A stretch of 64,000 nucleotides of DNA, taken from the NCBI GenBank assembly GCA_964016885.1, contig OZ024744.1, positions 84,878,001 through 84,942,000 of the forward strand, in the 5' to 3' direction. Below the pieces are notes generated by a model that saw only the letters and a program-made list of their open reading frames with translations, was not told the origin of the DNA and searched no databases. Source of the stretch: Eledone cirrhosa. Taxonomy: Eukaryota. A program made the translations under genes and the position numbers. This document shows positions 41,646 to 59,417 of the stretch, in pieces; the stretch's first letter is position 1, and the number at the start of each line of letters is the position of its first letter.

Positions 41646-41814
41646 ACCCCGACGGCAGAGCTCAAGCCGTTTCGACGGGTATTTCTGGATAGAAATAGCC
41701 GTCGAAACGGCTTGAGCTCTGCCGTCGGGGATATACATTTTCCTATTACCCACTCTACTACCCTAAGTATTGAGTACTCTGGTGCGTTATTGTCCATCTG
41801 GTTCCTTACCACAC
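41646..41814 (+). mobile_element. GTCC-family mini-element hairpin, copy 1
   Basis: Inverted arms of ~40 bp plus tail cctattacccactctactaccctaagtattgagtact..ggttccttaccac. Confidence 0.85.
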
Positions 41815-42984
41815 TATATATATGTGTGTGTGTATATATATATATATATATATATATATATATATATATATGTGTGTATGTGTGTGTGTGTGTGTGTATA
41901 TATATATATATATATATATATATATATATATGTATGTGTGTGTGTGTATATATATATATATATGTGTGTGTGTGTATATATATATATATATATATATGTG
42001 TGTGTGTGTGTGTGTGTGTGTGTATGTGTGTGTGTGAGTATATAAATAGATAAATAGATAAGTGATGTGTTACATAACTAAATGTACACTCGACATCTCG
42101 CAACCACTACCATCTTCACCATCATTACCACCGACACCACCATCACCATCACCACATACCCAGACGACCATCACTTCCACCACCACCACCACCACCACCA
42201 CTACAGACCAACACCATCACCATCGCCGCCTCCGCCACCTCCACCGTTGCTTGTTGGTTATTTTATATCTAGCTGCCGATATCTCCCACTTGAGGTATTT
42301 TTTTCACTCTCTTTCTCATACATTCACCCCCTTAGTCTCTCTCTCTCTCTCTCTCTCTCTCTCTCTCTCTCTCTCTCTCTTTCTCATTTACTGTCTCACT
42401 CCACTCTCTCTCTCTCCCTCTCACATACTCTCTCACTCCACTCTCTCTCTCTCACTGTCTCACTCACCTCCCTCTCTCTCTCTTTCACTCTCACACTTAC
42501 CGTCTAGCCCCACATCTCTTACAGTCTGACTCCACTCTCTCTCCCACTCACTATCTCTTACTCACTCTCTCACTCACTCTCTCTCCCACACACATTACTC
42601 CCTCCTTCGTACCCATTCACTCGCTCACACAACTCTCTCATTCCCAGAGTCTCTCACTTACTGCACCCTCCCTCACTCGCTACCACTGACTGCCACCCCC
42701 CACCCCCGACACACACACACACACTCCTACCCTCCCACACTCCTCCCTCCTCCTCAGTCACTCACTCACTCTCCCTCGCTCTCTCTCCCATCATCCCTCC
42801 ATCTCTCACACTTATACTTATACATATTCTGATATATCATTTCTGATTTTTGCGTTTTCGCTTCGCTTTTCCTGCCCGCCGAAAATGCGATTCTCGCTGA
42901 ATCTTTATTTTATATATATATATATATGTGTATATATATATATATATATATATATATATATATATATATATATATATATATATA

Positions 42985-45320
42985 ATGGGAAATTTGAACA
43001 GGGACAAAACAGAGAGGCAGTACAATAAATGTTTATTAATTTCACGCTCAGGAGAGTGGGGGTTAGGTGGGGGACGACGTTTCGGGCATAAGCCCTTCCT
43101 CAGGTGAGAAGTGTGTGGGAACAGAGTTCAAAAGGTGTGTAGGGGAGTGGTGGAGAGACATATAGCGAAAGGAAACGGTGCGAATGAAAAAAAAACAAAT
43201 AAAGATAAAAAATAAAAATAAAGCATGATCAAAATACAAGGAATGAAGGCATGATCAAAATAAACTGAAATTAAAAGGGGGTAAACAGGTGGTCGAAGGG
43301 TGTGGGGTGAGTAGGGGTGGTGGCGGGTGGAGTGGGGAGAGGGAGACGGGGTGTCCGAGCGGGGAGGGCTGAAGGTGGTGTGTGTGTGTGTGTGCGTGTG
43401 TGTGTGTGTGTGTATGTGTGTATGTGAAAGTAAGGGTTGGGGGAAGAACGGGGTTGCATGTTCAGGAAGAGGTGTGTGTGGGGGGTGTTTTTGTGGGTCG
43501 GAGTGTCTGTGCGTGTGTGGATAGGGGGTGGGGGGAGAGGAGTCAGGAGGCTGAGGGTGTAAATATGTGGTGGGAAGCACGTGTGTGTGGGGTTTAAGCG
43601 TGTTGTGGGTGTGGGTGGCGTGTGGAGAAAAAAATTTTTTTGGGGTGTGTGTGGGTGAGATATATAGGTGATTACGTAAGAGGATGGTTGAAAAGTTGGT
43701 AAGTTCCAAGGATGTTTAGTGGATTGGTTGTAAGTCAAATTCTGCGTGTGGGAGCGGTGGTCGGAAGAAGAGAGATGTGGGGTGCGCGCGCAACAGGAAG
43801 TGGTCAGCAGTGGGAGTGCTGTGGTCTGTTAGTGCTGGGAGGTGGTCAGAGGGCATAGCAGCAGTCGGTGGAATGGTAAGGGGGCGAGGATGGGTAGGTG
43901 TGAAAGTTGGAGTGAGGAGGGTGTGTGTGTGTGTGTGTGTATTAGTAGGGGTGTTAGTGGGATGAGTGAGTGTGGAGCGAGGGTGTGGGTGGAGCGGGGA
44001 GAGAAGGGTGTGTGTGGTTCTATGGAGGGAGTGTGGTGTAGTGGTGTGTGTGTAGTTTGATGAAGAGGTGTTAGTGGGTGTTAGTATACGGGAGGTGGGG
44101 AGGGTTTGAATGCAGGTGTGAGTGGGGGTTAGTGGTGGTAGGGTGTGTAGAGTTGGTGGTGTACGATGGTGTGTGGGTACGTGTGCGTGGGGTTGGGGGG
44201 TGTTAGTGATGTTAGTTGCGTGTGGGGTGGGTGGTGTAAGTGGGTGCGTGTGTTCGTGGGCTTGGGGTTAGGGGGTGTTAGTGAGGTTAGTTGCGGGGTG
44301 GTGGGATGGAGGTGTGGGGGTGAGAGGTGTGGGGGTGAGGGTTAGTGGTGGTAGTAGGGTGTGTGTTTAGTGTGAGCGCGTGTATATATGTGCCGGTGGG
44401 TGTGTGCGTGTGATAAGGAGGGGGGAGGAGGAGAAGAGGGGAGGGAAGGGATGTTAGTATGTTAGTTGGGGAAGGGTGGTCAGATGAGGGGTGGAGTGGA
44501 GGTGTTAGTATTGTTAGTGTGGGGTGGACGGTGAAAAGGAGGGGTGTGTTAGTGGTGTTAGTGGGGGATAAGTGTGGGAGGAGGGGGTGGTCGAACGCTA
44601 AAGGAATAAGGGTGGGGAGTTCAGGCCGGGGGGAGTGTGGGTCTGTAAGATGAAGATAGTGCGTTGTTCGACCGTAAGGCGATGGGCGGGTGTTCCGTGG
44701 CACTGGAGTAGGCCACAGACTATGAGATGGCGTGCGGAGTGTCCAGGGCCACCAAAGTGGCGGGCGATGGGGGAACTGCCCCCGAGACGAATATCCCGGA
44801 GGTGCTCCGTGACTCGGTCCGCCAGGCGACGTCCCGTCTGTCCGACATAAGTCCGACATAAGTCCGTAGACTAGGTTGGAGGAGGCATGCCGGAAGGAGG
44901 CATGCAGCGGAAGGCATGCCGGACCGAGATAGAGTGGCCGTTGGGACCCTGGAAGGTGGTGGTGTTGGTGATGTGGGGACAGGTGTTGCAGCGGGGCCTA
45001 GAACAGGGAAAGGAACCGGGGGGGGGGGGGGAAATAGAGCGTGGGTTGCGGGTAGGGAGCTGTGGACGAGGAGGGTGCGGAGATTGCGTGCGCGTTTGAA
45101 GGAGGGGAGTGGTGGGGTTGGGAAGATGTGGGAGGTGGAGGGGTCGGACTGGAGGCGTCGGAAGAGGCAGCGGATGGTGCGGTGGAGGGGTTAGGTGGAG
45201 GGGTATATATATATATATATATATATATATATAACACCACCACCCCACTCTCAAGAACGTGAAACTAATAAACCTTTGTTCGTACTGCCTCTCTGTTTTG
45301 TTCCCGTTCAATTTTTTACT
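42985..45320 (-). mobile_element. 5'-truncated Neptune-like PLE with long low-complexity 3' UTR and inverted end
   Basis: PGSFPCSRPRCNTCPHI..NLVY..TGRRLADRVTEHLRDI..IARHF..EQRTIFILQTHTPPGLN. 42985-43065 is inverted against 45240-45320. Confidence 0.85.
43073..43106 (-). ncRNA. Minimal hammerhead ribozyme
   Basis: AC-CTGAGGA-A-GGGC TTAT GCCC-GAAA-CG-TC^GT. Stem I is short. Confidence 0.7.
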
Positions 45321-45401
45321 ATATATATATATATATATATATATATATATACATATATATATATATATATATATATATACATATATATATATATATATAT
45401 A

Positions 45402-45655
45402 TAATAAAGATGAAATAAAAGATGGTTATAAGAGTTCCATATATTTTATTATACGTATTTCGAATACAAAATCATCCTGGGACAGATGTTGTGTTCTCTT
45501 CAGATAAAAAAATAAGGTACAATGTTATGAGGCATAATAGCTCTTGTTTATAAGAAAGTGCTAAGTCTACATATGACAGAAATATATGTGTTAATACTAT
45601 AGTAAGAAATAGATAGAAAATATTATATATACTCCAGTTCTACTTATCTGATATA
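45402..45655 (-). mobile_element. Second member of the 38180 family, with hammerhead (45441-45510)
   Basis: TTTTAT-CTGAAGA-GAAcACAA..TTGTaTTC-GAAA-TACGTA-TA^ATAAAA. An opposing tail fragment lies at 45620-45655. Confidence 0.8.
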
Positions 45656-57800: not shown

Positions 57801-58995
57801 ATTCCCGACAGATCCATCCACGACAACCTCCACCCCATGCGACACATCGTGGAGAGGGTAGCTAGGGAACCTGGCACGGGTGGGTCCATGATCAATTTAG
57901 ATCAGTCGAAAGCTTTCGATAGGGTCGATCATCGTTACCTAGCGATAGTCCTGAGCGCGGCTGGCTTTGGGCTCGTCTTCAGAGGCTGGTTCGCTGCCAT
58001 GCACAGCGACATCTGCTCTGTGGTGAGAGTGAACGGTGACCTTTCGGAACCGTTCAACATCATGCGCTCGGTCCGCCAAGGATGTCCCTCTCGTCCCTCT
58101 TGTACGTATTGACTCTCGAGCCATTACTGCACAAACTGGAGACGTCGAGGGGGATCCCGCGCAAACTAGGATGCGGAAGATCCGTGTCAGCATTTGCGGA
58201 CGATGTCACCGTAGTGGTGTCGAACGCCAAACACATCGAGGCGATCGGCACTACACTAAGAGAATACGAAGCGGTGACAGGAGCAATGATTAACCAGGAA
58301 AAGTCAGTGGGCCTGCAGCTCGGCACCTGGAGAGGCAGGTCCATGCCGTCCAACAGCGTCGTCGGGCGCTGGACGGACGGACCGGTTAAATTGCTAGGGG
58401 TCTGGTACGGTCCGGACCGCCAGACGGACAAAAACTGTGACGAGCAGGGTGGCTTCTCTCACCCAGAAATGGGCCGAGAGGAAGCTATCCCTGAAAGGTC
58501 GAACGGAGGTGGCTATCGCGTACAACGCGTCCGTCATCTGCTATCGCCTGACCGTCCTACCTTGTCCTAAGCCCGCCTGACTGCGCTGGAGCGTTTGCTC
58601 TTTCGCTTTTTGAGCAAGGGACGCGCTCCGATGGTCAGGCGGTCCATCTGTTGTCAAAACCCGCTTCGTGGAGGGCTGGGCATGCCGTGGCTGATGATGC
58701 ACAGACACGCGCTCAGGCTACGACATCTCCACCTCTTCCTCGACGATGATCAGGTGTGGTCGCCGTTTGCTAGACGCGTCTTTCCCCAGCTCGTTTCCTT
58801 GACGGAGCTGCAGTCCTGGGTCAAGCGAAGACCGAGAGGAAGCGTTTGGAGACTGGAATGTCTTCAGGCGCTCACAGCCCTCGACCAATCGGGCAATGTG
58901 ATCGGTGGAAACTCCACCTCGGCGTTCTATAGAGGATTAGTGGAGGGGAAGAGAGACGACGTACTTGGGGAAACTCTAGGCCTCGACGAAAATCA
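54806..58995 (+). mobile_element. Decayed Tx1-like LINE (ORF1 plus ORF2 APE/RT), 3'-truncated
   Basis: ORF1 zinc-knuckle relic near 55975-56035. SYLDRVF, TDHK, GPGYWKLN, KSPGLDGLPYE, LDQSKAFDRVDH, VRQGCP, AFADDV, GGLGMP. Multiple frameshifts; (ATT)n flanks. Confidence 0.9.
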
Positions 58996-59113
58996 ATTAT
59001 TATTATTATTATTATTATTATTATACATACATACATATCTACATACATTATATATACATTATATATACTTACATACATACATACATACATATATATATAT
59101 ATATATATATATA

Positions 59114-59310
59114 TAACAAAGGAATTGTGGTAAGGAACCAGTTGGACCATAACGCACCAGAGTACTCAATACTGAGGGTAGTAGAGTTGGAAATAGGAAA
59201 AAGTATGACCCCGACGGCAGAGCTCAAGCCGTTTCGACGGGTATTTCTGGACTCAGAAATAGCCGTCGAAACGGCTTGAGCTCTGCCGTCGGGGTTATAC
59301 TTGTTCCTAT
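59114..59310 (-). mobile_element. GTCC-family mini-element hairpin, copy 7
   Basis: Apex atttctggactcagaaat. An extra 20-bp arm stub lies at 59379-59398. Confidence 0.9.
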
Positions 59311-59417
59311 ATATATATATATATATATATATATATATATATATATATATATATATATATATATATGTATATATATATAGGAACAAGTATGACCCCGATA
59401 TATATATATATATATAT

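Follow-up and report, generated by a model that had tools for sequence, protein, structure and literature searches.

How Penelope-like elements (PLEs) regenerate their pseudo-long terminal repeats (pseudo-LTRs), and how their inverted, tailed insertions originate, are questions stated as open in two earlier reports [PMC2377424; PMC8557442]. Inverted truncated arms, tails, targeting of (TA)n, PLE hammerheads and the U3-A8 variant of the hammerhead core are already published. The closest described relatives are PLEs of the Hydra clade with C-terminal endonuclease (EN+) [Craig et al. 2021, PMC8557442] and PAc, the Poseidon element from Anolis carolinensis [Frangieh et al. 2024, PMC11167929], whose protein cuts both DNA strands, has been modelled as a dimer, starts reverse transcription at two internal sites and requires RNA downstream of these sites. 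Active Penelope-like families of octopus have been listed, in the part of the source at hand, with no mention of hammerheads or of the Hydra clade [PMC13282606]. In this work we have analyzed a stretch of 64,000 nt of the Eledone cirrhosa genome (assembly GCA_964016885.1, contig OZ024744.1, positions 84,878,001 to 84,942,000, forward strand), referred to as the window, in which seven (TA)n sites carry short repeats, mostly in head-to-head pairs. Their sequence identifies them as the 3′ ends of a TA-targeting PLE of the Hydra clade, of which the short repeats are very probably a by-product, and the distribution of their 5′ ends points to a hot spot inside the ribozyme of the parent element.

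The parent element and its ribozyme

The family is present in the genome (3.0 Gb, 1,796 contigs) as more than 50,000 arms. A 23-mer from the 3′ half of the hammerhead has 53,660 exact matches genome-wide and its reversed control has none, hence the repeat is not a chance sequence. Longer copies exist as well, since a 23-mer from the 5′ half has 1,633 exact matches; the preliminary description had proposed to look for such copies with an attached PLE open reading frame (ORF), and ORF-bearing parents were indeed recovered. Among 30 loci identical to window positions 46214-46345, which are 100% identical to the long, ORF-linked arms of L027 and L028, six (L017, L024, L026-L029) extend upstream into shared sequence, two of them with remains of reverse transcriptase (RT) or endonuclease, and at 400 exact junctions the tail continues straight into the ORF. 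Tandem arrays (L211-L218) consist of a 3,543-bp unit, 98-100% alike, in which the frame is open for 784-786 codons with the first in-frame ATG at +232 (719 amino acids from the ATG) and which has a 3′ untranslated region (UTR) of 1.15 kb. Positions are numbered so that +1 is the A of TTAGTCC and hammerhead cleavage falls after +41.

The single ORF contains the RT motifs FDIESYY, LYRDDGL and NFLDVTL and, at the C-terminus, VIY...YIG, R, H, E and N, conserved in 47 homologs; by motifs, it is assigned to an RT joined to a GIY-YIG-type endonuclease. Of 8,000 scored candidates, 2,018 proved to be homologs of the protein, with about 40% identity; nearly all are unnamed. Pfam, NCBIfam, PDB sequence and PDB profile searches did not name the ORF, and a single-sequence AlphaFold model of its protein gave no usable fold (pLDDT 32). 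The motif set given for the Hydra clade [PMC8557442] is found in the parent protein, together with insertion into (TA)n: RW(K/R) is seen as LRWRTFF (R here, K in 72% of homologs), DKT as SDKTGNLY and the CxCX5C linker as CNCPDRSIC, CCHH is absent (one C between VIY and YIG), and CxxC and CxH surround E and N (PCNLCSEE, LLNKK, ACKHR). From two typical Hydra traits that are no protein-level diagnostics, a canonical hammerhead and a length generally below 3 kb, the family departs, its core being mostly UUGANAA and its unit 3,543 bp long.

The hammerhead of the parent is complete and of type I, with self-cleavage predicted at GUC^. Its layout is ACCCC-UUGANAA-G-N-U-CGGCUA, a loop of about 40 nt, and UAGCCG-U-C-GAAA-CGGC-loop-GCCG-UC^GGGGU, with pairing between ACCCC and GGGGU and a G10.1-C11.1 pair. 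Core constancy was scored in 105 long arms that had been found without recourse to the 5′ core, 30 loci of which came from a search selecting YUGAGAA and enrich the sample for C3.A8 mismatch cores. Five positions are constant in at least 95% of arms (U4 in 103, G5 in 101, A6 in 100, A8 in 103 and A9 in 104), N7 is free (G77/T19/A6/C3) and position 3 is T in 70 and C in 31; the positions fixed in type I cores (U4, G5, A6, A9, G12-A14, U16.1, H17) are kept, and 3 pairs with 8 in most arms. The core is mostly UUGANAA, with a covariant U3-A8 pair, CUGAGAA and the canonical CUGANGA being rarer. The C3.A8 mismatch occurs in 29 of the 105 arms of this enriched sample, and CUGANGA in the same context at 21 genomic places, six of which were inspected and are family members (4 B-like, 2 A-like). 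It is known that a U3-A8 pair rescues hammerhead activity, and the family offers a natural C3-G8 / C3.A8 / U3-A8 series inside one ribozyme family. Stem II covaries between subfamilies A (CGGCUA/UAGCCG) and B (CAGCUA(GAUC)/(GAUC)UAGCUG), being longer in B. The minimum free energy (MFE) structure of a young parent is the three-stem fold, no more stable than shuffled sequences (z -0.17 and -0.34), and the MFE structures of the L028 and L185 parents lack this fold.

Several further features of the parent were noted. The L211 unit contains no AATAAA and a single ATTAAA within the ORF. At the 5′ end of the L212 array (4270-7841) a 55-bp piece of the ORF (unit 1755-1812) is reiterated head-to-tail about 65 times, which resembles reiterative, telomerase-style copying. 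Fragments of the 5′ region of the RNA at L219, L220, L222, L223, L143 and L150 end at +203 to +254, around the ATG at +232, and this cluster may reflect either a third zone for landing or priming, or short RNAs that terminate there.

Paired arms and the 5′ hot spot

The short insertions obey a strict pairing: 122 of 130 pairs join a long-tail arm to a short-end arm, with 3 long+long and 5 short+intermediate pairs. Long arms end at +141 and short arms at +61, TAT being next in the template at both, and (TA)n is the end context of all window copies and of all 30 long arms first sampled. In four contig sets (one study, kind unrecorded, perhaps the sample of the assembly itself) loose ends in (TA)n fall at +61 and +141, in agreement with two fixed 3′ ends. 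Both arms belong to the same subfamily in 69 of 73 scored pairs (57 of the 130 could not be scored), which together with the strict pairing favours priming on one RNA. Of the 122 pairs, 48 have a short-end arm that extends past the long arm on the 5′ side by more than 5 nt, 19 show the opposite, and in 55 the two ends lie within 5 nt of each other; in 12 cases the long arm does not get as far as +46. The 48 pairs exclude copying back from one cDNA, the snap-back considered in the preliminary description, and fit two priming events.

Apices at L011, L087 (2910-3056) and L091 (9034) hold long untemplated A/T homopolymers between the arms. In several insertions fragments running from +1 to about +250 are stacked ahead of the short arm, and short re-starts recur at the apex, a pattern that jumping of RT from the end of a template would be expected to produce.

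The 5′ ends were mapped in a pool of 344 distinct arms from the window, L001-L030, L071-L120 and L151-L210, excluding loci picked for length or for G; the pool was partly picked on motifs at +7 or +12, so that shorter arms are under-counted. The ends are not broadly distributed, the point on which the preliminary description had wished them to be plotted: 243 fall within -8 to +16, around a conserved TTAGT in loop II, 40 pass -9, and 61 end beyond +16, with seven arms at +39 to +46. When long arms were selected by their tail alone, 18 of 34 ended within -8 to +16, 3 passed and 13 ended later. Ends are most frequent at +1, and lesser piles occur at -4/-5, +2 and +7. The stop rate in the hot spot is 0.08 per nt as against 0.0008 upstream, about 100-fold lower, and upstream of -45 the ends are broad (20 stops over 24,696 nt at risk). 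In the whole genome the arms that reach +1 exactly number 27,871, and those that reach -10 at least 4,360, the latter being a lower bound because the pattern misses some subfamilies. The 7-mer at +1 in 104 long arms is TTAGTCC in 85, TCAGTCC in 5, TCAGTAC in 4 and TTAGTTC in 2, and we take TTAGTCC, TCAGTCC and TTAGTTC to be matches to the initiator YYANWYY. Loop II of subfamily B is otherwise unlike that of A, yet TTAGT is kept and B arms start there.

The base at -1 is G in 5,403 arms genome-wide, A in 890 and T or C in 21,578; the template has T at this position, and C in one subfamily, which leaves G and A untemplated. Manual reading of 40 G sites showed that the partner arm could supply the G in 17 and not in 23 (28 by the script label), and no constant upstream sequence precedes the 40 G-starting arms. 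At unselected free junctions G was found at 12 of 19 ends at +1 and at 10 of 38 elsewhere (Fisher p = 0.010). A leading G has been read as a reverse-transcribed cap for L1 and SVA [PMC2912911]. Behaviour at the site was also followed through the ORF in 30 tail-ORF junction loci. Where the ORF measured at least 1.2 kb, 14 passed the site (four of these form one array), 1 stopped there and 3 stopped in the tail; among short ORF-start fragments 6 stopped at the site, 3 passed and 3 stopped in the tail.

We consider it probable that the short arms arise from RT run-off at the capped transcription start of the parent RNA. The element endonuclease would cut both strands of (TA)n, and each cut end would anneal to one TAT site near the RNA 5′ end (+61 or +141), probably on one RNA. 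Both cDNAs would extend to the RNA 5′ end at the initiator-like TTAGT in hammerhead loop II and be joined head-to-head via 0-4 nt of microhomology or a short untemplated fill. Because the start would lie within loop II, the RNA would carry at its 5′ end half a ribozyme, unable to cleave, and the downstream copy alone would be complete. About one arm in eight goes on upstream; this would come about either by a jump onto the matching stretch at an RNA 3′ end or on a read-through or circular RNA template, and would rebuild pseudo-LTRs and tandem arrays. In LTR elements the minus-strand strong stop, primed near the RNA 5′ end, yields a short cDNA that must transfer. A fuller scheme, in which transcription starts in loop II, twin target-primed reverse transcription from two fixed 5′ sites yields strong-stop cDNAs, failed transfers account for the more than 50,000 arms and successful ones rebuild the pseudo-LTR, is put forward tentatively and is well short of probable. 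If it is true, the same sequence would serve twice in the RNA, at the 5′ end as a half-ribozyme that does no harm and at the 3′ end as the whole ribozyme; positions +1 to +41 would thereby form a terminal repeat like that of LTR elements, and the genome would record a missing step of PLE replication.

A number of observations weigh against run-off at a capped start. The start site is a prediction from genomic sequence. The excess of G is moderate, the local test comprises 19 junctions, several of one locus and one mis-called, and 17 of the 40 inspected G sites are ambiguous. The ends occupy a stretch of 24 nt and include a second pile, at -4/-5, in which G is not in excess. None of five inspected tandem arrays starts at +1, and just 1 of 18 long ORF-linked copies does; the rarity of such starts implies that most long copies do not come from an RNA simply starting at +1. 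Insertion L015 joins a B-subfamily arm to an A-subfamily arm, contrary to priming on one RNA, and the C3.A8 arms indicate that cleavage by the ribozyme may be dispensable. In Drosophila virilis the Penelope start site has been placed upstream of the ribozyme and not inside it [PMC2377424; PMC4209133].

Run-off has to be weighed against other ways of producing the same ends. The short copies, or a short promoter-proximal RNA, might be transcribed from the internal start and depend on mobilisation in trans, forming a non-autonomous family that resembles short interspersed nuclear elements (SINEs), which we regard as unlikely. Their very high copy number and a putative start internal to every copy would suit this, as would the clustering of jump fragments at +203 to +254 (8 of 12 short fragments), possible 3′ ends of short RNAs. 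When 178 short long-tail arms were compared with 73 long or ORF-linked arms, however, 38 were identical to one of the latter, and the three commonest short haplotypes (26, 9 and 2 copies) were all identical to long or ORF-linked arms, although the 26-copy group had been selected by an identity search with window 46214-46345. The separate non-autonomous element of the preliminary description thus finds no support in the well-sampled subfamilies; in the under-sampled CATAC and B groups two short haplotypes each lack an identical long arm, the nearest being 3 and 11-12 changes away. Moreover, 69 of 80 readable apices are distinct, so the doubles were not copied from a master double, fragments spanning +1 into the ORF start imply ORF-linked templates, and short copies lack RNA downstream of the RT start, which PAc needs (an analogy only). 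It is simpler to suppose that the short copies descend from the autonomous RNA, though some may have been amplified secondarily from short copies. The hot spot could also be a stop of RT, caused by structure or protein, in the folded hammerhead of a longer RNA, a reading we judge equally unlikely. It draws on the coincidence of the stop with the end of stem II, on the three-stem MFE form of the young parent and on the assistance that PAc protein gives to ribozyme folding [PMC11167929]. Against it, the site is passed in 14 of 15 cases via the ORF and repeatedly in the 99-100% identical tandem arrays, which a fixed barrier would make very unlikely; no pile occurs at the 3′ base of stems I or III (seven arms at +39 to +46), A and B share the end but differ in loop II, the fold is not unusually stable, and the extra G is left unexplained.

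An RNA 5′ end made by processing, whether by nuclease cleavage in loop II or by splicing, for which TTTTCATTTAG directly before TCC would be the acceptor-like site, is slightly less likely still. The sequence does look like a 3′ splice site, PLE introns near the ribozyme are known [PMC4209133; PMC2377424] and heterogeneous ends suit trimming; on the other side, the 40 G-starting arms have no constant upstream exon, the modal end contains the AG, the hammerhead's own site at +41 is not a hot spot and an uncapped end gives no reason for a G. Least credible, and in our view very improbable, is a short RNA selected as a substrate half and cut in trans by the missing hammerhead strand. Such an RNA would contribute the substrate side of stems I and II, and its sequence would allow pairing with the 5′ half. 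Descent from the cis ribozyme of the parent nevertheless fully accounts for the conserved GAAA, stem III and GUC, and no other origin for a 5′ strand came to light. The trans-cleavable half proposed earlier gains nothing beyond possible strand pairing. What stands of the earlier proposals is the stop site inside stem or loop II of a parent PLE, now that this parent and the missing half have been found, and, probably, a defined start, as that of the parent's own RNA rather than of a separate unit-length RNA.

Other identities were rejected. Ending at the ribozyme cleavage site as a rule is contradicted by just 7 of 344 ends at +39 to +46, and a spliced first exon by the lack of constant upstream sequence in the 40 G-starting arms. 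A miniature inverted-repeat transposable element (MITE) or other non-autonomous DNA transposon does not fit the unequal outer arm ends, the 69 of 80 distinct apices and an RT-encoding parent; a non-LTR retrozyme does not fit short copies that are head-to-head and lack the 5′ half.

The window copies and neighbouring repeats

All seven copies listed in the preliminary description (41646, 46156, 47840, 48152, 53559, 54371 and 59114) are present, each in (TA)n, and six are, as it held, head-to-head doubles with differing apices, 54371 being a single arm. Insertion 1 consists of a short-end arm at 41637..41689 (minus strand, about +3 to +55) and a long-tail arm at 41691..41813 (plus, about +6 to +128, tail end cut), and insertion 2 of a short-end arm at 46154..46212 (minus, +1 to +61) and a long-tail arm at 46214..46348 (plus, +7 to +141). 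In the next three the long-tail arm, on the minus strand, comes first: 47840..47974 (+7 to +141) with the plus-strand short-end arm 47975..48029 (+7 to +61) in insertion 3, 48152..48283 (about +9 to +141) with 48284..48342 (plus, +3 to +61) in insertion 4, and 53558..53658, which begins near +42, where the hammerhead would cleave, with 53659..53718 (plus, +2 to +61) in insertion 5. The single long-tail arm at 54370..54511 (minus) belongs to the diverged B subfamily and starts with GTTCAG (+2 of TTAGTTC). Insertion 7 joins a long-tail arm at 59113..59253 (minus, +1 to +141), preceded by an untemplated or shared G, to a short-end arm at 59254..59310 (plus, +5 to +61), and an eighth element, a 22-nt stub at 59377..59398 (minus, +39 to +61), follows a (TA)n run.

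The copies carry GAAA, stem III (A-U plus CGGC/GCCG) and GUC^GGGG, so the hammerhead 3′ half reported earlier is confirmed, and no window copy has the 5′ core. That CUGANGA is never present holds for the window copies, including circularly permuted and other-strand arrangements, the four canonical motifs of the scan all lying in other repeats; it does not hold for the genome, with its 21 places, and the parent mostly has UUGANAA. The unit length of about 140 nt describes the long arms (about 141 nt), the other arm of each double being about 61 nt. The 5′ end taken as fixed is instead a hot spot, with window starts ranging from +1 to +9 and two exceptions at +39/+42, and the view that no copy extends 5′ of GTCC fails for the left arm of 46156 and the long arm of 59114, both of which include the preceding A. 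An Rfam scan of the window gave no hammerhead among the 150 of 239 matches listed, these being only miRNA-like matches below threshold, on hairpins and (TA)n. A change of AGCCG to ACCCG in one arm recurs across separate insertions (41646, 59114; L087, L091), owing either to two template variants or to an RT error hot spot.

Further head-to-head hairpins lie at window positions 1800-2089, 7528-7635, 29199-29347, 48511-48697 and 62577-62957, several with CTGANGA...GAAA arms, and four of them recur 13-51 times in 1.35 Mb of fetched loci; they probably reflect like behaviour in other PLE families. An inverted pair of canonical type I hammerheads at 59581 (minus) and 62034 (plus) flanks a Hydra-like RT fragment (ORF remains at 59705-60613), and further canonical motifs are at 38327 and 6458 (both minus). 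A repeat of about 106 nt at 3107-3214 and about 20 other places, with 144 matches in the fetched loci, often clustered or in inverted pairs, is probably a SINE. A 49-bp minisatellite (22.6 copies, 95% matches) occupies 22668-23772. Other retroelement ORF remains, LINE-like and PLE-like by motif alone, are found at 13547-15439, 26357-27871, 57189-58567, 33182-33946 and 6261-7039.

Comparison with known systems

Run-off of this kind would help explain how PLEs build terminal repeats. The family offers predictions at the level of single bases (two priming sites, obligate pairing and a cap-like G at the run-off end), and its intact, near-identical ORFs make it suited to in vitro work of the type done with PAc; hairpins of this sort risk being mis-annotated as MITEs, SINEs or microRNA precursors. 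In the literature covered, which leaves aside subscription journals and Repbase, we found no account of a run-off hot spot in PLEs, of 5′ ends that cluster inside the ribozyme and bear a cap-like G, or of strict long+short arm pairing.

Like the Hydra clade [PMC8557442], the element has a single RT-EN ORF with RW(K/R) and DKT, a CxCX5C linker without CCHH and with CxxC and CxH around E and N, (TA)n targeting, a hammerhead near the 3′ end and an inverted, 5′-truncated partner arm, and the N-terminal and RT motifs of Hydra-1_Obim match the parent protein when compared by eye. It differs in length, 3.5 kb with a 1.15-kb 3′ UTR as against generally less than 3 kb, and in its ribozyme, which is mostly U3-A8 with a loop II of about 40 nt, whereas the Hydra set, Hydra-1_Obim included, has canonical short-loop forms [PMC8557442, File S2]. 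Neither a 5′ hot spot nor strict long+short pairing is described for the clade in the available part of that report.

PAc belongs to a different clade and shares with the present element two fixed internal RT starts, an optional tail, an AT-rich target and a hammerhead just upstream of the starts, cutting of both strands having been demonstrated for PAc [PMC11167929]. The tail is about 80 nt here and 30-40 nt in PAc, TAT matches the target at both sites here while the PAc starts are reported as non-homologous, and the available part of the PAc study reports no run-off products or start-site mapping. The Cercyon min-hammerheads of Schistosoma [Cervera and de la Pena 2014, PMC4209133] are likewise of type I, with G10.1-C11.1, the U3-A8 variant, a bulge on the 5′ side of a long helix II and close opposite-strand pairs. 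Unlike them, the present ribozyme has a stable stem III hairpin of 5-6 bp with a 7-9 nt loop and a long loop II, and C3-G8, C3.A8 and U3-A8 coexist in one family.

In L1 twin priming, too, two target ends prime one RNA and an inversion results [PMC2912911]. Unlike both twin priming and the strong stop, the arms here overlap in sequence and both priming sites are fixed; unlike the strong stop, target DNA and not tRNA would be the primer, and the short product is integrated in huge numbers. The non-LTR retrozymes [PMC7229834; bioRxiv 10.64898/2026.07.22.740005] are likewise short, non-coding, hammerhead-related and linked to PLEs, but they are arranged head-to-tail with complete ribozymes, whereas the insertions described here are head-to-head and carry half ribozymes.

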